From IMG/VR virus record IMGVR_UViG_2585427754_000004: a DNA stretch of 64,000 nucleotides; one strand, 5' to 3'. The stretch is from a virus. Lineage: Duplodnaviria; Heunggongvirae; Uroviricota; Caudoviricetes. Made by a program: the position numbers and the translations under genes. Under the pieces are notes generated by a model, which did not search any database, was not told the DNA's origin, and saw only the letters and a list, made by a program, of their open reading frames with translations. Below, piece after piece: positions 13,876 to 31,743 of the stretch; position 1 is the first letter of the stretch, and every line of letters begins with the position of its first letter.

Positions 13876-13950
13876 GATGGTGTAGCTCAGCGGTAGAGCA
13901 GTTGGCTGTTAACCAACTGGTCGGTGGTTCGAATCCACCCACCATCGCCA
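13876..13950 (+). tRNA. tRNA-Asn (anticodon GTT)
   Basis: Cloverleaf folded by hand: acceptor GATGGTG/CACCATC, anticodon loop CTGTTAA, T-arm GGTGGTTCGAATCCACC, discriminator G then CCA. Confidence 0.85.
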
Positions 13951-13955
13951 ATTTA

Positions 13956-14042
13956 GGGGAGTTAGTCCGTAGGGGCAGCGGGGTAGACTGTAAATCTACT
14001 GTCATTGCGACTCGGGTGGTTCGACTCCATCACTCCCCACCA
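13956..14042 (+). tRNA. tRNA-Tyr (anticodon GTA), type II with long variable arm
   Basis: Acceptor GGGGAGT/ACTCCCC, anticodon stem-loop GTAGA-CTGTAAA-TCTAC, T-arm GGTGGTTCGACTCCAT, CCA encoded. Confidence 0.8.
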
Positions 14043-14046
14043 AATT

Positions 14047-14122
14047 GCCGGTTTAGCTCAGTTGGTAGAGCGTCTGCCTTGTAAGCAGGATGTCAGCGGT
14101 TCGATCCCGTTAACCGGCACCA
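14047..14122 (+). tRNA. tRNA-Thr (anticodon TGT)
   Basis: Acceptor GCCGGTT/AACCGGC, D-arm GCTC ... GAGC, anticodon loop CTTGTAA, T-loop TTCGATC, CCA encoded. Confidence 0.75.
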
Positions 14123-14442
14123 ACACAACAGGTAAGAGCATTGGGCGAATCGGCGATACTGACCCACAAGCCCGTAAATCGATAGAGTCAGACCAGTGCT
14201 CTTACCGTTGTGAGGAAGTGCAGCTCTTTGAAGCAACCAGAAGATAAGCATCTGGCTTCACAACACAACGATAAGATCATTACGGTTAATCGTCGTTCAT
14301 GTGCACAATGACTGGTCGAAAGGTAGTGATCTTACCGTTGTGATGAATGCACAGGCTGATGTGCCGCAACTACAGTAGTGCGCGCTTTGCGGGGCTTGCT
14401 ACAACCCTGTGTCGGAGTTCAGCACCGACCATCACAATAGCT

Positions 14443-14529
14443 GGAGAGTAGGGAGCATGGTGCTCAAGCGGTCTTGAAAACCGTCCCATTGCGCAAGCGA
14501 TGATGGTTCGATTCCATTACTCTCCGCCA
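14443..14529 (+). tRNA. tRNA-Ser (anticodon TGA), type II
   Basis: Acceptor GGAGAGT/ACTCTCC, anticodon loop CTTGAAA, long variable arm, T-loop TTCGATT, CCA encoded. D-arm is atypical. Confidence 0.7.
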
Positions 14530-14750: not shown

Positions 14751-15101
14751 ATGACCAGCAAAGATAACACACCACTAAAAGTCACCCCTGAACACATTGA
14801 ACAACTCATTCAAAGTGAACATTATTTCACTGCATATGATGCCAGCCACGGGGATAACTTCATCTCTGTTTACAATTCAAAAACAGATATCGACAAAGGT
14901 CATGAGTCGTTAAAACTCTTAACGTTCTGCGTTATGGTTCTCAAAAATGGATATACCGTAACGGGAAAATCTGCGTGCGTAAGACCAGAAATCTTCAACT
15001 TTGATGTTGGTCGCGAGTACGCTCGAAAAGATGCTATCGATCAAATCTGGCCCCTGGAAGGCTATCTCCTGAAGCAAAAGTGGCATGAGGCAAAGCAATG
15101 A
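14751..15101 (+). CDS. Hypothetical protein
   Basis: 116-aa ORF preceded by GGAAG; stop overlaps the glutaredoxin start. Confidence 0.3.
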   Translation: MTSKDNTPLKVTPEHIEQLIQSEHYFTAYDASHGDNFISVYNSKTDIDKGHESLKLLTFCVMVLKNGYTVTGKSACVRPEIFNFDVGREYARKDAIDQIWPLEGYLLKQKWHEAKQ

Positions 15102-15343
15102 CGATCACTATCTACGGACGAGATAACTGCTCATACTGCAAACGTGCGGTCGAGCTGGCGAAGCAACTAAAGGGACATGGCTACGGTGATTATGAGTACA
15201 TCGACATCACCACTGCCGATATCGACAAGGAAAAACTTAGTGAAATTGTTGGTAAACCGGTAGAGACTATCCCCCAGGTGCTGATCGATGGCCAGCCGAT
15301 TGGCGGATACACAGAACTGGCTGCATACGTCAGCACCCTCTGA
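15098..15343 (+). CDS. Glutaredoxin (T4 NrdC-like)
   Basis: Active-site CSYC near the N-terminus and C-terminal IPQVLIDGQPIGGY, matching the glutaredoxin fold. Confidence 0.7.
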   Translation: MTITIYGRDNCSYCKRAVELAKQLKGHGYGDYEYIDITTADIDKEKLSEIVGKPVETIPQVLIDGQPIGGYTELAAYVSTL

Positions 15344-15553: not shown

Positions 15554-16657
15554 ATGAAAAATAGCTTTGACAGAGCACGCGCTGCGGAGAACACCTCAAA
15601 AGAGGCGATTGAGTATCTCGAAAGAGCATCTCAAATGCAGGCCGTTATGATCTCCCAGGTTAGCAATGACATGAGATTCTCGGACGCATTCATGTTATTC
15701 ACTCGCTTATCTCTGCTGATAACCAGACGTCGGCCAGAGATCGCTGTTCATTGTATTTTGATACATGTTTTGCCGCACATTGCCGATGTAAAAGTAAGTG
15801 ATATTAATAGGTTCATGGTGAACCAACTGGTCAACCCACTAATACTGGATGGCAAAATTGTTATGGGCCGCCGCGTTTTCTCTCTGATGAAGCAGTTCCT
15901 TAGCTGGTGCGCCTTCCAGGGGATGATAGACGTGTCACCGTTAAACGATATGTCACTTAACAAAGTTGCCGGTGGCGCAAAGCCCACGCCCCGCGAGCGG
16001 AAGCTGACTGACGCAGAGGTATGGGTGTTCTGGAATATATGGGACTACTTCAATGTGTGCGCTGGTACAAAATGGGCGGCCAGACTGTGTCTTGTATCAG
16101 CAAGACGACCTGACGAAGTACTGCGGGCTAAAAAAAGTGAGTTCAATCTTAAGCGTGGGGTTTGGAATCAAGGCAAGAGGAACAAATCTGCCCGTGAGCA
16201 TTCTCTGCCTTTAAGCTCATTAATGCGCACTTGTATTGAAGAGTTGTTCGAATATGGTAAAGACAGCCAGTGGCTCGTGCCTTCGAATAAAAAAATCGGG
16301 AAAGACCTTCCTATGTCTAAAGTGGCAATAGCCCAGGCATTACGTCGTATTCTGGAACGACCAGAACTGATGGAGCTTGAGCCATTTACACCCCGAGATT
16401 TGCGCCGTACTGCGCGTAGTTACTTCCCAGCATTAGGCATAAGCCAGGAGGTATCACGTAAAATCATGAACCACAGTCTTGAGGGGATAGATCGGGTCTA
16501 CGACCGTCACGATTATATGGACGAGATGCGAGACGCCTTAGAAAGTTTCTCGACGTACATCGCATCAATCGTAGAGCAACCGGATTTAGACGAAATTGAC
16601 CACAAATTTAAGGGAGATCGTCTATCAACAGAGCTTATTCGTGTAAATTTTTCATAG
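15554..16657 (+). CDS. int: Tyrosine recombinase / integrase
   Basis: C-terminal catalytic-domain pattern with Arg (RRPDEV), His and RDLRRTARS, then HS ... VYDRHDY carrying the putative Tyr. N-terminal start uncertain. Confidence 0.7.
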   Translation: MKNSFDRARAAENTSKEAIEYLERASQMQAVMISQVSNDMRFSDAFMLFTRLSLLITRRRPEIAVHCILIHVLPHIADVKVSDINRFMVNQLVNPLILDGKIVMGRRVFSLMKQFLSWCAFQGMIDVSPLNDMSLNKVAGGAKPTPRERKLTDAEVWVFWNIWDYFNVCAGTKWAARLCLVSARRPDEVLRAKKSEFNLKRGVWNQGKRNKSAREHSLPLSSLMRTCIEELFEYGKDSQWLVPSNKKIGKDLPMSKVAIAQALRRILERPELMELEPFTPRDLRRTARSYFPALGISQEVSRKIMNHSLEGIDRVYDRHDYMDEMRDALESFSTYIASIVEQPDLDEIDHKFKGDRLSTELIRVNFS

Positions 16658-17038
16658 AGACTTTATGGCCTCAACAACCTTTTGTGATGCGCCTTTCTCT
16701 TTACCGAATCGCTCGTTATATGCAGCAAGAACCTGTTTTTCGTCCTCGTTAAGAGGAGCAGTGCCTTCTTTGTATAAAAATGCTGCGAGTTCGGGTTGGC
16801 GTTCTTCCAGCACCATCATCATAAGACGACTTGGCTCAATGCCCAGCGCCAGCGCCAACGGACGAACCTTATCGATAGGCAAAGGAATTTTGCCACTTTT
16901 AATTAAAGAAAGGTTGTTGGCATTTTTGTAACCAATAAGTCTGGCTATTTGGGCCTGACTCATAGGTGAGGATTCAATCAACCCTGCGATAAAAGCAGCG
17001 TAGCGACTTTCTATAAATTCAATCTTGTTATCAGACAT
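16652..17038 (-). CDS. HTH (XRE-family) DNA-binding regulator
   Basis: Helix-turn-helix MSQAQIARLIGYKNANNLSLIKSGK; convergent with the integrase; palindromes in its upstream region. Confidence 0.5.
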   Translation of the reverse strand: MSDNKIEFIESRYAAFIAGLIESSPMSQAQIARLIGYKNANNLSLIKSGKIPLPIDKVRPLALALGIEPSRLMMMVLEERQPELAAFLYKEGTAPLNEDEKQVLAAYNERFGKEKGASQKVVEAIKSL

Positions 17039-17289
17039 GGTTACAACCTTTGCGCGTTCAATTCTCTCTGGTAAGTGCTTACCGATATTACATCAAAGGT
17101 TAGGGTTGTAAAGCTATTATCATTTTTTTCGATAGGCACTTAAAAGACCGGTTAAAGGCCATTGCACGGAGAAAAATTAGCCCAAAATAGGTAAGAAAAT
17201 CAACTTGCATATGATATGAATGTATTCAGTATTGATACAAATTTTAGTAGTATTCCTTACCATAGTATAAGTTAGAATGGATTGATTGA

Positions 17290-17502
17290 ATGAAAACCAC
17301 TATTTCCAGCCTAATCGCTCTTGAGATCGGACACGTACAGAAATTAGCTGATGAGTGTGTAGCTGACATCCTCACCGATCTACCGAATGAGCAGATTCAG
17401 GTTGGTGTGAATGACACAACTGGATTTATATTCGAACTTAACAACAAACGCTTCACGCTTCTCAATACCGGCTCCGGGTCTTTAGCCGTCAGAATCTGTT
17501 AA
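17290..17502 (+). CDS. Hypothetical small protein
   Basis: 70-aa ORF followed by a hairpin. Confidence 0.25.
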   Translation: MKTTISSLIALEIGHVQKLADECVADILTDLPNEQIQVGVNDTTGFIFELNNKRFTLLNTGSGSLAVRIC

Positions 17503-17600
17503 CCCCTCTTCTCCCTGCGCGAATGGCTTAGTTCCCTGTTCGCGCAGTGCTACATTAAACACACTAGTAAATAATTTGTTTTCATAACAAAGGATTAGCC

Positions 17601-19709
17601 ATGTCTAAAAAACGTTCCATCAAAGAGGTTCAGGACTTCCGTGACAGTGTAAAACGAGTAGTCGCTCTCCTTTCAGGTAAAAACATCCCTGTTGCAGAAC
17701 GAGGGGACGACGCTTATGTACGCTATAACGATGATGGAGAGCCAATTCTCGTAAACATCCCATCAATCCCGGATAACGCAACACCGGCATTGATGAATGC
17801 TGTGCGCGGATTTCTCGATCATGAGGTTGCTCACATTTTGTTTACCGATATTCGTGTGTCCAACAAAATGAGAGAAAAAGGACGCGTTCCTTCCTGGTCG
17901 CTATGGAATGCCTTAGAAGACGTGTTCATCGAGCGAAAAATGGGTCAGGTCTTTAACGGAACAAGACGTAATCTGATGGCAACTCAGCGCCTTATAATCG
18001 AAAAAGTCTTTAAACCAAAGGCTTCAGAGGCTATTGCTTATTGTGGCAAAGATCAGCGCGCGCTTTTTCTAAACTTCTTTCTCTGTCCGGTTGTAAGAGC
18101 CTGGGATGGCCAAGCACCGTTCGTAGATTTCATGGATGAATATTGGCCTGTCATTGAGAAACCAATTTCATTATTAAAAGAACATGGTATCGATGTGGCC
18201 GTGCGTAACATGTCTTGCACCGAGGATTGTGTAAAGGTGGCTGCGACCATAGCTAAGATCCTCAAAGACACTGAAAGTGAAAGCAAAGGTAAGGAGTCAG
18301 CTCCGGGAAAAACTTCCGATCCTTCAGACGCTGACCAGACGGATGCCTCTGGAGAAAACAATGAAGACAACGAAGATCATGAGACACCCTCATCGTTAGA
18401 TAATCACAAATCTATTAAATCAGAGTCACATAGTAAGCACAAACATGATAATAACGACAGTGATGATTCAGATAATCCTGAATCATCAGAAACAATATTC
18501 GATGATACAGAAAATGATAAAGCGGTATCAGATTCTGATGCTTCTGATAACGCGGCGTCAGAATCATTAACCGCTGACCACGAAAAAAGAAAAACGACAG
18601 AAGACGGCTCTTCAGACATTCCAACTCCGTCAAAAATGAGTCTGGAAGAGGCTTTAGAGGAGTTGGATAGCATGGAAGATGAAGTCGGAGGCATGACAGA
18701 AGATGCGCTATCCGAAACGATTAAAAGCGAGTTAACAGAAAGCTCGAAAAGCGAATACAGGCCATACAATCGCTCATACGACTTCATCGGCTCGATTGAT
18801 CAGGCAGAAGCCCATATCAAACGGCTTATTAAAACATTCTCCGATATTGATTTAGGTGGATATCCAATCAGCCGTTATCGCATCGTTCCTGAAGGCAACC
18901 AACTCTTCGACAAATATATTGAAAAGCACCTTTCGTCAGGTGTTTCGTCGACGCTGGCAAAAGACCTGGAACGTGCAATAGCAAGCAGAAACAGAGTTCA
19001 GTTTATACCTGGCCAGCGTCGGGGGCGCATTCATGGTTCAAGTATCTACAGATTAACAATGAATGATGATCGCGTGTTTCGTAAAAAAGAAGAATCTAAA
19101 GCCGTTAACGCCTGTGTTCAACAAGTGATTGATTTATCGGGTTCAATGAGTGGCGAAACGATAAAACTAGCTCTTGCAAGTGCATATACCATCGCCGATG
19201 CACTTGATCGAATAAATGTTCCCAACATTATCACCGGCTTCACTACATTTGGCAGTCATATGGCAGCAGGAGAACTTAAGGCTATCAAATATGAGTTCTC
19301 TCGCTTTGAATCTTTAATGCTACCTATCATCAAAAATTGGAATGAAAAAGCAAATTCTCGCGAAGTTCGCTCACGTATGGGGTGCGTAGGCTACACATTC
19401 CCACTTCTTAATAACGTGGATGGTGAAAGCATAGCCAGCCTTGCATCGTTATTTTCCGGTCGCTTGGAGGACAGGAAGATCATGCTTGTTCTGAGTGATG
19501 GCGCGCCGTGGGCTGTTGGGAGAGGTTTTGACGCTCATTTGCGTTCAGTTGCGAAGCAAATTGAAACGCAGACTGACATTGATTTGATGGCAATTGGCAT
19601 CATGACTGATGCACCGGAGAGATTTTACTCAAATCATGCCCTGGTAACGAGCGTTGATAGTCTTGGTTCATCTGTAGTTACTGAACTATCTCGTATCATT
19701 TTAAAGTGA
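17601..19709 (+). CDS. von Willebrand factor A (vWA) domain protein with long acidic Ser/Asp-rich insertion (CobT-like)
   Basis: MIDAS motif DLSGSMSGET in the C-terminal half; roughly 150-aa low-complexity acidic region in the middle; conserved upstream motif. Confidence 0.55.
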   Translation: MSKKRSIKEVQDFRDSVKRVVALLSGKNIPVAERGDDAYVRYNDDGEPILVNIPSIPDNATPALMNAVRGFLDHEVAHILFTDIRVSNKMREKGRVPSWSLWNALEDVFIERKMGQVFNGTRRNLMATQRLIIEKVFKPKASEAIAYCGKDQRALFLNFFLCPVVRAWDGQAPFVDFMDEYWPVIEKPISLLKEHGIDVAVRNMSCTEDCVKVAATIAKILKDTESESKGKESAPGKTSDPSDADQTDASGENNEDNEDHETPSSLDNHKSIKSESHSKHKHDNNDSDDSDNPESSETIFDDTENDKAVSDSDASDNAASESLTADHEKRKTTEDGSSDIPTPSKMSLEEALEELDSMEDEVGGMTEDALSETIKSELTESSKSEYRPYNRSYDFIGSIDQAEAHIKRLIKTFSDIDLGGYPISRYRIVPEGNQLFDKYIEKHLSSGVSSTLAKDLERAIASRNRVQFIPGQRRGRIHGSSIYRLTMNDDRVFRKKEESKAVNACVQQVIDLSGSMSGETIKLALASAYTIADALDRINVPNIITGFTTFGSHMAAGELKAIKYEFSRFESLMLPIIKNWNEKANSREVRSRMGCVGYTFPLLNNVDGESIASLASLFSGRLEDRKIMLVLSDGAPWAVGRGFDAHLRSVAKQIETQTDIDLMAIGIMTDAPERFYSNHALVTSVDSLGSSVVTELSRIILK

Positions 19710-19804
19710 ACAAAACAGCCTTAACGATAAGTAACCACTTACGATAGATAATGATATATTTATATAAGAAGTTGAACGCTCATTAGAAAACAAAGGAAAA
19801 ACGC

Positions 19805-21040
19805 ATGACTACTACTGCACTGCAAAATGAAAAAAATCCTTCTGATTACCTTGTTTGCAAGTGGTGCGGAAAATCATTTCACTATTTTAAGTCCCATGTA
19901 GCCAATGGTAATTGCGAGGGCATTCCTGAGTCAGTAAAAGATGCCGATCCTGACACCGTACTGAAAATGTACACAACACAGTTTCCAGATGAGCCAACGC
20001 TATCGAAAAAGGCACTTGATGCAATTCAAGCTAAACGTGCCGAGCAAAAAAGCGAAATGGCCAAATCATCTGGCGTGACCAGTAGCCCAGGCTACACAGG
20101 CACAGTTGAGTACAAGACAGATCTGGTCGCAGCTCACGAACTGCTAAATGTAACGGTGAAAGAACTCGGAACAAAACGTGGGACGCCGCTCATGGTTAGC
20201 GTCAACGTCAATACGCCGTATCCAGAGTTCGTTCCAGAAGTGAAGAAGGGCTACGTATATGGCGACTTCGAACTGATCAAAGATATTTTCATGATGCTTG
20301 AACTTGGCATACCTGGCTATTTGTGGGGTCATGCAGGAACAGGCAAATCGTCATTGCCTACACAGCTATGTGCTTTGCTCAATCGTCCGTTGATCCGTGC
20401 CCAACATACAGCATCAATGGAAGAGGCACATGTTACGGGGCAAATTCTGGCGCGTGATGGCTCTACGTATTTCGAGCCTGGCTTGCTTGCGCTCGCAATG
20501 AAGCATGGCTGGGTTTACCTCGCGGATGAATACGACTTTGCGTTTCCACAAATTCTTGGCGTGTATCAGCCAGTGCTGGAAGGTGAGGCGTTGGTCATCA
20601 AAGAGGCAACTCCAGAATGGCGTCGCATTACTCCGCATGAACGGTTTGCTTTCATTGGCACTGGCAACACAAACGGTTCTGGTGATGAAACCGGCTTGTA
20701 CCAGGGTACAAACATCCAGAACGCCGCGAACTTTTCGCGTTTTGGCATCGTTTCGAATGTGAAATACATGAGCAAAGAGGCAGAGATCAACATGTTGATA
20801 AATGCCGGTATCGTGGATGAATACGCAGAAAAGATGGTTAAGTTTGCCGGTATCGTTCGCGATGGATACGAAGAACACCTTATCAGTCAGCCAATTGGCC
20901 CTCGTGAACTTTTGTTGTCGGCCAAGATTGGAATGATGCGAGGCGACTTTGTGACAGGTATTGAGCGTTCTTTCATTAACAAACTCCCTTCAGCTTCTGC
21001 ACAAGCGGCTCGTGAAGTTGTTCAAAAAATATTTGGTTAA
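19805..21040 (+). CDS. AAA+ ATPase (MoxR/CobS-like)
   Basis: Walker A GHAGTGKSS, Walker B VYLADEYD; N-terminal Cys/His cluster; directly follows the vWA gene. Confidence 0.6.
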   Translation: MTTTALQNEKNPSDYLVCKWCGKSFHYFKSHVANGNCEGIPESVKDADPDTVLKMYTTQFPDEPTLSKKALDAIQAKRAEQKSEMAKSSGVTSSPGYTGTVEYKTDLVAAHELLNVTVKELGTKRGTPLMVSVNVNTPYPEFVPEVKKGYVYGDFELIKDIFMMLELGIPGYLWGHAGTGKSSLPTQLCALLNRPLIRAQHTASMEEAHVTGQILARDGSTYFEPGLLALAMKHGWVYLADEYDFAFPQILGVYQPVLEGEALVIKEATPEWRRITPHERFAFIGTGNTNGSGDETGLYQGTNIQNAANFSRFGIVSNVKYMSKEAEINMLINAGIVDEYAEKMVKFAGIVRDGYEEHLISQPIGPRELLLSAKIGMMRGDFVTGIERSFINKLPSASAQAAREVVQKIFG

Positions 21041-21220
21041 TCGTGCGTAAAGGATGTTTCGGCTCTCTTATCGCTGCTTCTGAAACTGGTAAGGCTTGTC
21101 TGGTGTGTCCAGACAAGCCCGATTGTCACCAATCAGCAAAAGAAGTTGCGATTTCGATGCATGGGAAGTTCGTAGGCTTCCCCAATGACAAAATCAAAAA
21201 AACCAGAAAGGTAAAAACAC

Positions 21221-24200
21221 ATGAAGGCACTGATGGTTCGAACTGACTTCTCACTTGGGGAGTCGGCTCTAAAAGCAGAAAACGCGGTGAAGATTGCCAG
21301 AGAAGCTGGCTACACCGCTGTAATTTCAGCAGATAGCATGAATATTGCGAGCGTTATTCCACTACAACGTGCCGCTGGTGACGACATGGCGGTTATTTGT
21401 GGTGTGAAACTAAACATTGTTGATGATCCCACATACGAACACCGGGCTAAACTTGCTAAAGAATCTATGAGATGTATGGAATCATTAGAGCGGGGACGTA
21501 ACTACTCGTTTACCGCTCTAATTAAAAATGAGCAAGGATATCGCGACATCTGCGAACTAATGACGGCGGCCAACACACGAGAACAGTTCTACTTTGTACC
21601 GCGTCTCTCGCTCGAACAGTTGGTTTCTACATATGCCAAAGGCAACATCATCCTGCTTACTTCCGACATCGGTAGCGTGTTCCAACGCAACGATTTTGCA
21701 AAAATCATAAGCACACTGATTACAGCGGGTGGAAAAGACAACTTCTATAGTGTGGTTTATCCGCACCCTACCCCATTCTACGACCAGATTAACGTCCGGG
21801 CGATGAAAGTCGCCAGCGCATTGAAAATAGAGCCAGTGGCGTTCTATCCCGCTTATTACGAATCGATCGACGATGCAGACATTAAAGACATCGCGCACAT
21901 GGTTACGAACAACATCAAAATCGACCAGCCGCATCGTCTGCGTATCCCCCACCAGCGAGATAACGCCGTCAATGGTCGCCGCCATCTCCTTGAGGCGCTT
22001 AAAGCCTTCTCCGTTCGCATGGATGTGCCTGTAACAGCTGCAATGGCCTCAACAACGCAGGATACCATTATCGATTCCTGCACATGGCGCTGGCATGAAT
22101 TGCCACCAGCACTGCCAAAGATGGCAGACGACGAGCCTGCAACGCTTATGAAACTGGCTGTTGCAGGGCTGCGTAAACGTCTTACCACAAAAGAGTTTGG
22201 CTACACACCACCTGCTTCTGAGAACAGGGTTTATGTTGAGCGGCTAAAGTACGAAATGGACACGCTGACTCGCCTGGGATTTTGTGGTTACTTCCTGATG
22301 GTACGCGATCTGATGAATCATAGTCGTGAAACTGGCATTCCCGTTGGGCCTGGTCGTGGTTCCTCTGCCGGTTCTCTGGTGGCGTGGTGCATAGGCATAA
22401 CCAACGTCGACCCAATCCGTCACGGTCTTCTGTTTGAGCGTTTCATCAACCCTGAGCGTCTCGACTTGCCGGATGCGGACTTGGACTTCAGCCAGGCACG
22501 TCGCCATGAGGTGATCGAGTATCTGAATGAACGCTACGGCGAAGATTACGTTGCGGGTATTCCGAACTTCACCTACCTGGGCGCAGCCTCTGCACTACGT
22601 GATACCGCTCGTATTTATGGTGTGGAGTCCGCAGATATGGCGGTATCAAAAGAACTGAAGAACGCTGAGGATGATAGCCTTCCATTGGAAGAACTGCGCG
22701 AACAACTGGCAAGTCTCGACAAATACGCAACAAAATATCCTGATGCATTCAATGCAGCCTGCAAGTTACAAAGCCTTATGCGTGGCTTTGGTAGACATGC
22801 GGCAGGGATGATCGTAGCAGGTGTTCCTCTGACAGAACGTACACCGGTTGAGCGCCGTGGTGACGCGCGTTGTATCGCATTTGACAAGCGTTACTGCGAG
22901 GCTATGGGCCTAATTAAGCTGGACGTGCTTGGCCTGGCAACTCTCGATTTGCTCGATAGTGCAAAACGCTACATAAAAGAGAACACAGGTGAAGATATCA
23001 ATCTTGATGCCATTTCTCTTGAAGATCGCAAGGTGCTGGATGGTTTTGCTGCTGGGTACACTCAAGGTGTTTTCCAGCTTGAATCAGGCCCAATGCGCAA
23101 GCTGCTTAAAGATTTAGGTGGTGGAATTGAGCCAATGAGCTTTAAAACGGTCGTCGCTACAACTGCGCTCTTCCGGCCGGGGCCAATTCAATCAGGCATG
23201 TTGGATGACTATGTTTCTGTCGCCAAAGGCTTTATGACGCCGGAATCATTACACCCCGTTCTTGATGAACTTACCGCGGAAACAAATGGCGTGATTCTCT
23301 ATCAGGAACAGACGATGAACGCGACTCGATTGCTTGCCGGCTTCACAATGGCTGAAGCTGACGCTGTGCGTTCCGCAATCGGTAAGAAGAACATGGAAAA
23401 AATGAAGAGCATGGGCGAGAAGTTCATCGTTCAGGCTCAAGCTGGCTGGATAGACGTTGAGCTGGAAGATGGCACTACACAGCGCATTCACCGTGCGGAA
23501 CATTTTAAATGCGAAGACGGAACTCTGAAAACTGTCGAAGAGGCACTTGAGCACGGCGCAAAACTACCTATAAACGCAGTACGCGTTACAGCGTCACATC
23601 CAGGGCTATCAGAGATGAAAGCGAAGGAGATCTGGACCGCATTTGAGAAAAACGGAGCCTATCAGTTCAATAAATCACACTCCGTTGCTTATTCTTTAAT
23701 CAGTTATCAGTCTATGTGGCTAAAGACGCACTACCCTGCTGAGTTCTTCGCAGCTGCGCTCACCATTCTGGGCGAGGATAAGCATCAGGGGCTGGTGAAG
23801 GATGCGCTGACCTATGGCATTCGCGTATTGCCACCAGACGTTAATGTGTCATCTAACCGAATTGAGATCCGCACACTCGAAGACGGCAGTCAGGCACTGT
23901 ATGCGCCATTCTCTGCTGTGAAAGGCTGTTCTGAAAATGGTTGTCAGGCAATTATGCGTGCGCGTGAGAAAGTTGGTGGCAAATTCGAGTCAGTGGCACA
24001 ATTCGATGAAGCGGTCGAGAAGCGTGCATGTAACAGTCGTGTACGCGAGTCGCTTCATAAAGTAGGGGCTTTTGCGTCAATTGAGCCAGGCAGTCTGCCA
24101 GCAACTGATCCTGAACGACTGCGCGACCAGGCTGAGCTGATGGGCAATCTCATCATTGACGCTGTTAAAGCATCACGTCCGTTCGAAATGAATCCTAAGC

Positions 24201-24739
24201 GTTCTGCCGAAATCAACGTACTCATGACACGTATGGCGGCTGAAATGGGCTTGGGTGAGGAGTTGATACGCCCGACTATTGGTATTAAACCCAAAATCAT
24301 GATCATTCTGGACAATGCGAACGGCAATGACGCTCGTACCGGCTACTTCATGGAGAACGGATACGACGACTTTAAGGCAAAACTACTGACAGTTGGAGAT
24401 CTGCGCATGGGCGATCTTTATGTCACGGGTGTTTGTAAGAAGGTTAAGGACAAAGAGAAAGACTATACCAAAGACGAGATAGGCCAGTTCACAGACTTTA
24501 TGCGGGAAGAAATTAATCTTGTACGACCAACCTACATTTTGACGTGTGGTAGTCGTTCAACCGCACTATTTAACAATAAGAGTAAACCATCAGATCTGAT
24601 TGGTCGTAAGGAGTACTTCCCAGAGCTTGATGCAACCGTCTTCTACGGATTTAACCCGAATATCCTGTACTTCCGACCGGAAGAAGGAGAGCGACTGGAG
24701 GCCATTCTGGCTGATATCGCGGAGACAATAAATAAGTAA
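21221..24739 (+). CDS. dnaE: DNA polymerase III alpha subunit (DnaE-type replicative polymerase)
   Basis: 1172 aa; GPGRGSSAGSLVAW, FERFINPER, PDADLDF catalytic triad region and FNKSHSVAYSL ... HYPAEFFAA align with bacterial DnaE signatures. N-terminal PHP-like region lacks the usual His residues. Confidence 0.85.
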   Translation: MKALMVRTDFSLGESALKAENAVKIAREAGYTAVISADSMNIASVIPLQRAAGDDMAVICGVKLNIVDDPTYEHRAKLAKESMRCMESLERGRNYSFTALIKNEQGYRDICELMTAANTREQFYFVPRLSLEQLVSTYAKGNIILLTSDIGSVFQRNDFAKIISTLITAGGKDNFYSVVYPHPTPFYDQINVRAMKVASALKIEPVAFYPAYYESIDDADIKDIAHMVTNNIKIDQPHRLRIPHQRDNAVNGRRHLLEALKAFSVRMDVPVTAAMASTTQDTIIDSCTWRWHELPPALPKMADDEPATLMKLAVAGLRKRLTTKEFGYTPPASENRVYVERLKYEMDTLTRLGFCGYFLMVRDLMNHSRETGIPVGPGRGSSAGSLVAWCIGITNVDPIRHGLLFERFINPERLDLPDADLDFSQARRHEVIEYLNERYGEDYVAGIPNFTYLGAASALRDTARIYGVESADMAVSKELKNAEDDSLPLEELREQLASLDKYATKYPDAFNAACKLQSLMRGFGRHAAGMIVAGVPLTERTPVERRGDARCIAFDKRYCEAMGLIKLDVLGLATLDLLDSAKRYIKENTGEDINLDAISLEDRKVLDGFAAGYTQGVFQLESGPMRKLLKDLGGGIEPMSFKTVVATTALFRPGPIQSGMLDDYVSVAKGFMTPESLHPVLDELTAETNGVILYQEQTMNATRLLAGFTMAEADAVRSAIGKKNMEKMKSMGEKFIVQAQAGWIDVELEDGTTQRIHRAEHFKCEDGTLKTVEEALEHGAKLPINAVRVTASHPGLSEMKAKEIWTAFEKNGAYQFNKSHSVAYSLISYQSMWLKTHYPAEFFAAALTILGEDKHQGLVKDALTYGIRVLPPDVNVSSNRIEIRTLEDGSQALYAPFSAVKGCSENGCQAIMRAREKVGGKFESVAQFDEAVEKRACNSRVRESLHKVGAFASIEPGSLPATDPERLRDQAELMGNLIIDAVKASRPFEMNPKRSAEINVLMTRMAAEMGLGEELIRPTIGIKPKIMIILDNANGNDARTGYFMENGYDDFKAKLLTVGDLRMGDLYVTGVCKKVKDKEKDYTKDEIGQFTDFMREEINLVRPTYILTCGSRSTALFNNKSKPSDLIGRKEYFPELDATVFYGFNPNILYFRPEEGERLEAILADIAETINK

Positions 24740-30912: not shown

Positions 30913-31743
30913 ATGAAGAAAGGTTTACTGGCAGTGATCGTGGCCGCTGTTTGCACAATGGGTCTTACTGGCTGCGATCGCGTGGAGCCTGGATACGTTG
31001 GCATCAAAGTAAACAAATTAGGTGAAGACAAAGGGATTGGTGAAGTGGTTGGCGTTGGTCGCCAATGGACAGGTCTTAACACCGAACTTTACGTATTCCC
31101 GACCTTCAAACAAATGAAGACCTACGACGAGCCGTTCACATTCCAGATGAGTGACGGTACTGCTATTGGTCACAAAATTGGCGTTGCGTATCTGGTTAAT
31201 CGTGACAAGGTAACGACGGTGTTCCAGACCTATCGCAAAGGCGTAGACGATATCACCGAATCAGATCTGCGTCAGAAAATTGCCGACTCTCTAAACCGTT
31301 TGGCCAGCCGTATGACCACTGACTCATTTATCGACGGTGGTAAGGCACAATTGCTGGACAACGCACTGAAAGATATTCAGAAAGAGATGTCTCCGGTTGG
31401 TATTGAGGTACTGAGCCTGTCATGGGTTGGAAAGCCTGATTACCCAAAAACCGTCATAGAATCTATCAACGCCAAAGTAACGGCTAACCAGCGTACTCTG
31501 CAACGTCAGCAGGAAGTAGAACAACGTAAAGCTGAGGCGAATATGCTGCGTGAACAGGCTAATGGTGAAGCTGATGCTATCCGTGCTCGTGCGCAGGCAG
31601 AAGCAGATGCCATTCGTCTGCGCGGTGAAGCTCTGCGTCAAAACCCGAACGTTATGGAACTGGAAGCCATCAATAAATGGAATGGCCAGTTACCGCAGTA
31701 CATGACTCAAGGGGCTAACACTCCTTTCATTACAGTGAAATAA
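30913..31743 (+). CDS. SPFH/Band-7 domain lipoprotein
   Basis: Signal peptide with lipobox LTGC; C-terminal Ala/Glu/Arg-rich helix (EQRKAEANMLREQANGEADAIRARAQAEADAIRLRGEA) typical of the prohibitin/HflK fold. Confidence 0.55.
   Translation: MKKGLLAVIVAAVCTMGLTGCDRVEPGYVGIKVNKLGEDKGIGEVVGVGRQWTGLNTELYVFPTFKQMKTYDEPFTFQMSDGTAIGHKIGVAYLVNRDKVTTVFQTYRKGVDDITESDLRQKIADSLNRLASRMTTDSFIDGGKAQLLDNALKDIQKEMSPVGIEVLSLSWVGKPDYPKTVIESINAKVTANQRTLQRQQEVEQRKAEANMLREQANGEADAIRARAQAEADAIRLRGEALRQNPNVMELEAINKWNGQLPQYMTQGANTPFITVK

Follow-up and report, generated by a model that had tools for sequence, protein, structure and literature searches.

Positions 17601–21040 of a 64,000-nucleotide stretch of the viral record IMGVR_UViG_2585427754_000004 (Caudoviricetes; the whole of this stretch is referred to below as the window) are occupied by two adjacent genes, which encode a CobT-like adaptor protein and a CobS-like ATPase. 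Pairs of this kind are commonly labelled "cobalamin/porphyrin biosynthesis" and counted as viral auxiliary metabolic genes, a habit that is corrected by the evidence from the enterobacterial elements described here. To judge from the sequences, the pair is not a chelatase in these elements; it is a MoxR-class AAA+ motor with a VWA adaptor, homologous to CobS-CobT. We consider it reasonably probable that the two proteins form an ATP-driven remodeling or processing machine, built on the CobS-CobT motor and acting early, in which (i) the VWA domain captures a client, (ii) an acidic segment serves as a tether, (iii) a zincin-like domain is brought to the client, and (iv) a zinc finger places the machine on DNA. 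The role of phage cobS/cobT is an old and modest question about a very widespread pair. Two of its features, the intact zincin site of the adaptor and the probable Ros/MucR-type finger of the ATPase, are under-described; an acidic tract such as its "insertion" is usual among the members of this family.

The first gene (17601..19709, + strand) encodes the adaptor, a protein of 702 aa composed of a zincin-like N-domain, an acidic disordered linker, a shaft segment and a VWA domain with a MIDAS (metal ion-dependent adhesion site). Its Pfam matches are CobT (aa 9–292, E 3e-27) and CobT_C/VWA (aa 492–701, E 1.5e-82), and phrog_1576 matches it over its full length (E 1e-300). Within the VWA domain, delimited by CobT_C and structure alignment (aa 492–702; 19074..19706, + strand), the MIDAS motif DLSGS is located at aa 511–515. 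Alignment with solved CobT (21vt/9uka_G), read against the residue list of the CobSTN preprint, assigned the MIDAS residues to D511, S513, S515, N605 and D633, all five of which are invariant across 51 diverse homologues. The profile built from this 51-member family matches solved CobT at E 3.9e-63 (9uka_G). The profile alignment to 9uka_G (CobT Q373–R413) also placed a shaft-equivalent segment at aa ~463–500 (18987..19100, + strand), which is near-invariant in the alignment of homologues, and R69 and D73, the equivalents of CobS-docking residues, are invariant.

The second gene (19805..21040, + strand) encodes the ATPase, a protein of 411 aa with an N-terminal extension of ~140 aa, which matches Pfam AAA_5 (E 2e-15) and phrog_249 (E 1e-106). 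The PHROG matches of the two proteins (E 1e-300 and 1e-106) exclude chance. Residues 39–315 of solved CobS (9ujv) align to the ATPase with E 1.8e-25, and matches to Midasin, CbbQ and NorQ were also obtained. The alignment to 9ujv delimits the AAA+ core and lid (aa 142–411; 20228..21037, + strand), with Walker A at 20327–20350 and Walker B at 20513–20536. When it was mapped onto the residue list of the same preprint, all ATP-site residues proved to be intact: Walker A (G175–S182), Walker B (D241–E242), sensor-1 (N288), the arginine finger (R312) and sensor-2 (R367). CbbQ_C is present in 29 of 45 homologues of the ATPase.

An AAA_5 ATPase with an intact ATP site thus adjoins a VWA protein with a complete MIDAS, the combination that characterizes MoxR-class AAA+ plus VWA systems. 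Both proteins were recognized as such by the first-pass annotation (a MIDAS-bearing VWA protein, now confirmed by its open reading frame (ORF), Pfam and the MIDAS alignment, and a MoxR/CobS-like ATPase with an N-terminal Cys/His cluster), and its suggestion that the pair acts as a chaperone-like remodeling machine is supported by homology, on which the motor-adaptor architecture is firmly predicted. The related pairs NorQ/NorD, CbbQ/CbbO, RavA/ViaA and BchI/BchD share with it an AAA+ (AAA_5/CbbQ_C) ring and a client-capturing VWA-MIDAS adaptor, and charged flexible linkers recur among them as they do here. The likeness is, however, a distant one (single-sequence E 1e-5 to 1e-3), their clients are respiratory or carboxylase enzymes or tetrapyrroles, and none of these four pairs has the zincin N-domain or the Ros/MucR finger of the window pair.

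The closest structural model is the solved CobS-CobT-CobN complex, in which the CobT shaft enters the pore of the CobS ring upon nucleotide binding and the MIDAS of the VWA domain faces CobN (bioRxiv 10.64898/2026.07.21.739949). The pair has the same MoxR-class ring subunit and ATP-site residues as this motor (CobNST; 9ujv, 9uka, 21vt), and the adaptor has the same order of parts as CobT (N-domain, disordered acidic linker, shaft, VWA-MIDAS), with the docking residues of the N-domain retained. It differs in the additional ~140-aa N-terminal extension of the ATPase with its zinc finger, in the length of the linker (164 aa versus ~90) and in an intact HExxH motif, which cellular CobT has lost.

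Compared with Escherichia phages Cyrano, CMS-2020a and PhiR41_1, the 3.6-kb stretch containing the pair shows 97–98% identity; for Salmonella phage SSU5 the value is ~75%. The nucleotide identity of the pair to its counterparts in Cyrano and CMS-2020a and on E. coli plasmids amounts to 98–99%. The stretch is present in 244 of 5,426 complete E. coli genomes, in every case on plasmids of ~110 kb, where the genes are annotated as "cobaltochelatase CobT-related protein", "AAA family ATPase" and dnaE. From these phage identities and plasmid matches we conclude that the 64-kb window is an SSU5-type E. coli phage-plasmid. The pair is therein an already catalogued one, annotated as the "CobT/CobS-like" genes of such elements (SSU5 gp49/gp50; PHROG 1576/249), from which it shows no substantive difference, its linker lying at the short end for the clade. 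In enterobacterial SSU5-like elements the homologues are 65–99% identical, match over their full length and share the genome position; the adaptor itself is 98–99% identical to the annotated 'cobaltochelatase CobT-related protein', and the CobT-like proteins of the SSU5 clade range from 649 to 790 aa.

The spread of these genes is much wider. Of the PLSDB plasmids, 1,021 carry CobT_C-like genes; Klebsiella contributes 345 of these, Escherichia 228, Acinetobacter 147, Yersinia 63 and Salmonella 49. A further 802 phage records contain CobS-like genes, and clustering at 50% identity divides the CobT-like family into more than 5,000 clusters, many of its members being located on contigs of ~104–115 kb. 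One 99.2%-identical plasmid, E. coli pAMPD1 (NZ_CP058356.1), has a DNA ligase gene interrupted by a Tn3-family transposon (TnAs1), next to which lies a methyl-accepting chemotaxis gene, and a frameshifted dnaE; it is probably a defective phage-plasmid in which the cobT/cobS-like pair is still intact.

Several observations separate the pair from genuine cobaltochelatases. The scores obtained with the NCBIfam equivalog models are far below the cut-offs (69.2 bits versus 759.05 for TIGR01651, CobT; 85 versus 558.55 for TIGR01650, CobS). In a neighbor-joining tree of the C-domains (a rough tree, without support values), five cellular CobT, i.e. the CobS-adjacent proteins of Cereibacter, Rhizobium, Sphingomonas, Pandoraea and Caballeronia, are separated from the phage-type proteins. 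The window has its genes in the order T to S, cellular pairs in the order S to T, and the window provides no cob-gene context. As for CobN, the only ORF of the window near its size is DnaE (1172 aa), and no annotated cobN gene was found elsewhere in the Cyrano genome (98% identical), in which the ORFs of more than 1000 aa are annotated as tape measure, tail J and tail fiber proteins. Construction of the aerobic pathway in E. coli takes ~30 heterologous genes, including cobN (PMC6249242).

The absence of CobN, the separate clade and the intact zincin site make the chelatase label wrong for enterobacterial hosts, and these sequence-based criteria indicate that the pair is not a cobaltochelatase. 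Some of the labels are of another origin: the Cyrano genes (OV696614.1 43137–46573, corresponding to window positions 17601–21037) are named 'dimethylbenzimidazole phosphoribosyltransferase' and 'cobalamin synthetase', which is a name collision with the unrelated CobT and CobS of Salmonella. The same confusion is repeated for phage cobS/cobT in a 2024 roseophage paper, which calls the function of phage cobS uncertain (PMC11288001).

The acidic Ser-rich segment of the adaptor, delimited by composition and alignment, extends over aa 222–385 (18264..18755, + strand) and consists of a hypervariable part (aa 222–345) and a conserved acidic end (aa 346–385), which probably belongs to the structured C-terminal part. 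Its 164 residues contain 30% D+E, 27% S+T and only 10% hydrophobic residues, with a net charge of −35; the values for the flanking domains are 11–13% D+E and 35–38% hydrophobic. We surveyed this segment in the 381 homologues in which both flanking domains could be delimited. Its length varies from 58 to 356 aa (medians 179–206, which places the window linker on the short side for the family), its D+E content is 34–37%, and it is net negative in all but one of the proteins (380/381). Among the SSU5-clade relatives, the part corresponding to aa 222–345 is 14–23% identical, with many indels, compared with 75–78% for the flanking domains. Tandem Repeats Finder detected in the linker DNA just one 9-bp unit (2.6 copies, score 32) and no repeat array, so that a recent repeat expansion is without evidence.

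Genuine CobT likewise has an acidic linker, both in the chain deposited in the PDB and in the proteins of Cereibacter and Rhizobium; it comprises ~90 residues, which are disordered in cryo-EM maps (bioRxiv 10.64898/2026.07.21.739949). The segment, reported previously as an insertion of ~150 aa, is therefore real as an acidic Ser-rich tract, but by its distribution and composition it is the flexible, presumably disordered linker of the family, not a special insertion. The first-pass annotation had named two outcomes that would count against its reading, namely a clustering of the pair with bona fide cobaltochelatase subunits and the absence of the acidic segment from homologues; neither was found, since the pair scores far below the equivalog cut-offs and falls into a separate clade, and the segment is present in all homologues surveyed.

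The N-domain of the adaptor (aa 1–221; 17601..18263, + strand) is, by homology, a CobT_N relative with a predicted zincin-like fold. It contains the sequence HEVAH (aa 74–78; 17820..17834, + strand), a predicted HExxH zinc-site/catalytic motif, and further downstream NALEDVFIE (aa 103–111; 17907..17933, + strand), a putative Glu helix that may supply the third zinc ligand; both were recognized by sequence conservation. H74, E75, H78, N103, E106, D107 and E111 are invariant in the 51 sequences, which outside the window's own clade are only ~30–40% identical to the window protein. Two sets of full-length proteins were taken to represent the wider family; 142 of 146 and 109 of 111 of these proteins keep HExxH, and 132 and 108 of them, respectively, have the extended motif HExxH..NxxE[DE]xx[ILVM]E. 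HExxH was also found in the versions of Vibrio phage ICP2, Roseobacter phage CRP-810, Gordonia phage Jams and the Rhizobium phage-plasmids. It is missing from all five cellular CobT, which have S/A, M/F/A and R/Q at its three positions, and it is this difference between the phage-type and cellular proteins that has been under-described.

The AlphaFold2 model of aa 1–225 (pLDDT 89.3, pTM 0.85) consists of a helix, a three-stranded sheet, the HExxH helix (aa 62–81) and the Glu helix (aa 99–117). The arrangement of HExxH on a helix with a downstream Glu (E106/E111) resembles that of zincin (gluzincin/M48-like) metallopeptidases. A Foldseek search with the model gave no significant match, and a phmmer search of the PDB with just the N-domain yielded nothing but spurious matches to HLA and superoxide dismutase; the domain is too diverged for a single-sequence search. 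CobT_N has been likened to an M48C peptidase domain, and the small subdomain of CobS is its docking site (bioRxiv 10.64898/2026.07.21.739949); by homology, the N-domain of the adaptor clearly has a docking role. The invariance of the motif residues at only ~30% identity, together with the retention of the motif in more than 95% of the representatives, points to selection on the metal site itself; the site is very probably functional in most lineages, and the domain is probably catalytic.

A homologue consisting of the N-domain only is encoded by Salmonella Typhimurium AB571791.1 (31364–31855), where it is annotated as a 'conserved hypothetical protein'; it is 33% identical to aa 1–187 of the adaptor. 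The zincin-like domain may therefore exist separately from the VWA part.

The Cys/His cluster of the ATPase is CKWCGKSFHYFKSHVANGNC (aa 18–37). The family consensus, Pfam and hhalign together identify it as part of a probable Ros/MucR-type C2H2 zinc finger (aa ~15–70; 19847..20014, + strand), which is followed by a Y..FPDEPTLS motif. The consensus of the N-termini is KIxCxxCGxxxHxIxxHLxxxHPD..Y..FPDAPxLS, in which C18 is invariant and C21 and H31 are present in at least 90% of the sequences; CxxCx9H occurs in 103 of 113 homologues, and 70 have a second His at the Ros spacing. In the window protein, C18, C21 and H31 are predicted ligands at Ros-like spacing. A 12-residue insertion in the window clade displaces the last His of the finger, which may be replaced by C37 as the fourth ligand.

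Pfam ROS_MUCR (PF05443) matches 9 of 44 ATPase homologues (best E 1.4e-6); the window ATPase alone reached no match to this model. In the search of the family profile against the PDB, the Ros87 structure 2jsp was matched with E 0.027; among the matches listed, it alone was limited to the first ~45 positions of the profile, at the N-terminus, and it alone was a DNA-binding domain. The comparison with Ros by hhalign gave a probability of 87%, with an approximate Ros sequence, and AlphaFold2 modeled aa 11–80 with pLDDT ~80–93. As in the Ros/MucR domain (PF05443, 2jsp), most ATPases of the family show CxxCx9Hx4H followed by Y..(F/Y)P.AP, although its fusion partner in this family is an AAA+ ATPase and not an oligomerizing regulator, and one subclade of the ATPases is without the second Cys. 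In the literature searched we found no description of a fusion between a Ros/MucR finger and an AAA+ ATPase. The presence of this probable finger suggests a link of the pair to DNA.

The region around the pair contains genes for a DnaB-like helicase, a primase and an ATP-dependent ligase, for four tRNAs and for an integrase, as well as a 70-aa ORF and an XRE-type repressor gene of divergent orientation; downstream of the pair are a 67-aa Cys-rich ORF and genes for DnaE, a gp32-type single-stranded DNA-binding protein (SSB), a 5′-3′ exonuclease and RecA. The same order ([integrase, repressor on the opposite strand, small ORF,] CobT-like, CobS-like, small or sigma-like gene, DnaE, SSB, exonuclease, RecA) recurs in Rhizobium phage-plasmids, a Ralstonia prophage, metagenomic contigs and Pseudomonas phage nickie. 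In Cyrano, the morphogenesis module (from terminase to tail fiber) occupies 0.1–26.5 kb and the pair 43–46 kb, among genes for the helicase, primase, ligase, DnaE, SSB, exonuclease and RecA. The pair was located outside the morphogenesis module in all genomes inspected.

Taken together with the solved motor, these features lead to the following model of the proposed remodeling or processing machine. By homology, the 411-aa ATPase would assemble into a hexameric ring; nucleotide binding would insert the adaptor shaft (aa ~463–500) into the ring pore, with the N-domain docked on the small subdomain of the ATPase. The MIDAS face of the VWA domain, which binds CobN in the chelatase, would here capture a different protein client, and the long acidic linker could serve as a disordered tether that allows the N-domain and the VWA domain to reach across the ring and the client. 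The N-domain, with its intact HExxH...E site, may cleave the client or grip it in a metal-dependent manner, and in this lineage the Ros/MucR-type fingers of the ATPase may place the machine on DNA. Since the pair forms the first large cistrons of an early rightward operon beside the repressor gene, followed by dnaE and the SSB, exonuclease and RecA genes, an early replication-stage role is expected, i.e. action on a DNA- or replisome-associated protein when lytic or plasmid replication begins.

A number of observations weigh against this model. The pair is found without DnaE in ICP2, CRP-810 and Gordonia phages, and the synteny with dnaE may reflect only the common descent of a lineage of ~110-kb phages. 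A scan of positions 16500–21400 for promoters and terminators found no more sites than in shuffled sequence and was thus uninformative, so that gene order is the sole basis for the operon structure and for early expression. The ATPases of ICP2 and of the Roseobacter and Gordonia phages have no such finger, and DNA tethering is therefore not general. About 3% of the lineages, including Pseudomonas phage nickie, have lost HExxH and yet keep the domain, from which it follows that catalysis is dispensable in some of them. Their degenerate forms of the motif are DSEISK, DKEVAN, DHQVAL, DQQVAR and DSQVSQ (nickie L016 6974–9058; P0176, P0209, P0227, P0264), and these adaptors retain the domain, the linker and the MIDAS, in parallel to the motif loss in cellular CobT. 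Finally, no experiment on any phage-type pair was found in the literature searched, where the function is called uncertain, and no functional study of SSU5 cobT/cobS was found.

A more specific form of the model, which is at present unlikely, is that of a DNA-tethered, ATP-driven metalloprotease machine: the MoxR ring would be held on DNA by six fingers, the VWA domain would capture a DNA- or replisome-bound protein of host or phage, and the zincin domain would cleave it at the start of replication. Candidate clients are a nucleoid silencer, a repressor or a replication block. If this is true, the CobT of cobaltochelatase would have branched off from such machines and lost its protease function, and the protease and DNA-tethering activities would give an indication of how the chelatase motor evolved. 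The copy on the E. coli phage-plasmid offers targets for point mutations by which these ideas can be tested (Walker B, MIDAS, HExxH and the zinc finger).

The strongest competitor of the remodeling or processing machine, which we nevertheless regard as improbable, is a pure remodeler without proteolysis, in which the zincin site is vestigial and the N-domain serves for docking only, as in genuine CobT. The homologous domain of genuine CobT indeed works without HExxH, and the motif has been lost in a few phage lineages; against this explanation stand the invariance of seven motif residues at ~30% identity and the retention of the motif in more than 95% of ~260 representatives, which point to selection on the metal site. 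The pair might instead be a chaperone that inserts metal into, or activates, a phage enzyme, e.g. at the PHP-domain site of the adjacent DnaE, in the manner of NorQ/NorD, CoxD/CoxE and CbbQ/CbbO. The ATPase also matches NorQ and CbbQ, the VWA domain of the adaptor matches NorD, the cobT-cobS-dnaE adjacency is kept across Alpha-, Beta- and Gammaproteobacterial elements, and the HExxH site could hold a metal instead of hydrolyzing; nevertheless, shared ancestry confounds this synteny, any such client is hypothetical, and the existence of pairs without DnaE in ICP2, CRP-810 and the Gordonia phages weakens a DnaE-specific role, which leaves us doubtful of this explanation. Slightly more doubtful still is a function in virion assembly, as a chaperone combined with a processing protease, which has been proposed for the MoxR plus metallopeptidase-vWA pair of jumbo phages and for the MoxR-VWA pair of Acidianus two-tailed virus. 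Iyer et al. 2021 described a pair of MoxR and metallopeptidase-vWA proteins in group 2.2 jumbo phages and suggested such a role (PMC7824862). By that description, the architecture is like that of the window pair, a phage MoxR ATPase adjoining a VWA domain fused to an N-terminal metallopeptidase domain, and the zincin motif is intact here; however, the window pair is part of a replication operon and its ATPase bears a zinc finger, of a DNA-binding type that would be unexpected on a chaperone for capsids or tails. The Cyrano pair lies among replication genes, away from the morphogenesis module, and the Rhizobium, Ralstonia, Pseudomonas, Vibrio, Roseobacter and Gordonia elements likewise have the pair in a non-structural region.

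Two further explanations take their cue from the names of the genes and from the charge of the linker. According to the usual reading in virome papers, the phage CobS and CobT join the CobN of the host and thus boost cobalt insertion and the supply of vitamin B12. This is suggested by the homology to CobS and CobT and by database names such as 'porphyrin/cobalamin biosynthesis', some of which, as noted above, result from the collision with the unrelated Salmonella proteins. The low scores with the equivalog models (69 and 85 bits, where 759 and 558 are required), the separate clade with an HExxH motif that chelatase CobT lacks, the absence of CobN from the element, the location in a replication operon and not among cob genes, and the absence from E. 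coli of the aerobic pathway and its substrate make this explanation highly improbable. Salmonella, for its part, uses the CbiK-type anaerobic route. Hardly more credible is the idea, which goes back to the first-pass annotation, that the acidic segment imitates nucleic acid and thereby ties up proteins with which the host binds DNA, for example restriction enzymes or nucleoid proteins. A net charge of −35 across 164 aa would suit such a function, and phages and plasmids do encode acidic DNA mimics, Ocr and ArdA among them. These known mimics are, however, folded proteins with fixed arrays of charges; the segment, to judge from its variation and its homology to a disordered linker, has no such conserved folded surface. 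Its hypervariability in sequence and length (58–356 aa) fits a flexible spacer and argues against a shaped mimic, and genuine CobT has the same kind of linker, there a disordered spacer, which leaves the idea unsupported. Anti-defense and defense models gave no match, and nothing was found in the literature searched for phage cobaltochelatase genes together with anti-defense. With the PADLOC defense models, the adaptor gave only a 16-bit match to DrmE (E 7e-4) and the ATPase none; a reading of the pair as a defense system was rejected for lack of a match to such a system.

Upstream of the pair, the XRE/HTH repressor-like gene (16652..17038, − strand; weak Pfam matches to HTH_19/HTH_37; named 'helix-turn-helix transcriptional regulator' by PGAP) is divergent from the cobT-like operon, in the context of a lysis-lysogeny switch. 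A tyrosine integrase gene (15554–16657, + strand) converges on it with an overlap of 6 nt, and the 70-aa ORF (17290–17502, phrog_2627) is at the position expected for a Cro-like gene. The same integrase/repressor/small-ORF layout precedes the CobT-like gene in the Ralstonia prophage and in metagenomic contigs, where the element is integrated beside uvrC-pgsA. Between the 70-aa ORF and the start of the cobT-like gene we noticed an inverted repeat with a 9-bp stem (CTGCGCGAA ... TTCGCGCAG; window ~17516–17548), not accompanied by a T-run, which could be an operator or an RNA hairpin.

The tRNA cluster (Asn-GTT, Tyr-GTA, Thr-TGT and Ser-TGA; 13876–14529) is located upstream of the genes for a Gp49-like protein, a glutaredoxin and the integrase; tRNA-Asn is the only tRNA annotated upstream of the cobT-like gene in SSU5. 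The GrxA-type glutaredoxin (15098–15343) and an SPFH/Band-7 (flotillin-like) protein (30913–31743) are encoded in the non-structural part of the element.

Downstream, the 67-aa Cys-rich ORF (21043..21246, + strand; GTG start; C5, C19, C22, C28, H29; phrog_6337, E 3e-45) begins 3 nt past the stop codon of the ATPase gene and overlaps the start of dnaE by 26 nt. Its counterpart at the same position in SSU5 is gp51, and in Alpha- and Betaproteobacterial relatives the ATPase gene is followed in its place by a sigma-70-region-2-like gene. The dnaE gene (21221..24739, + strand) encodes a DnaE-type DNA polymerase III alpha subunit of 1172 aa, with Pfam matches to PHP, DNA_pol3_alpha, finger and HHH_6. 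The C-terminal ~150–250 aa of the phage DnaE match separate PHROGs (4335, 13175), and in the Ralstonia and metagenome relatives a match to Pfam UDG (uracil-DNA glycosylase) was found at the C-terminus of DnaE.

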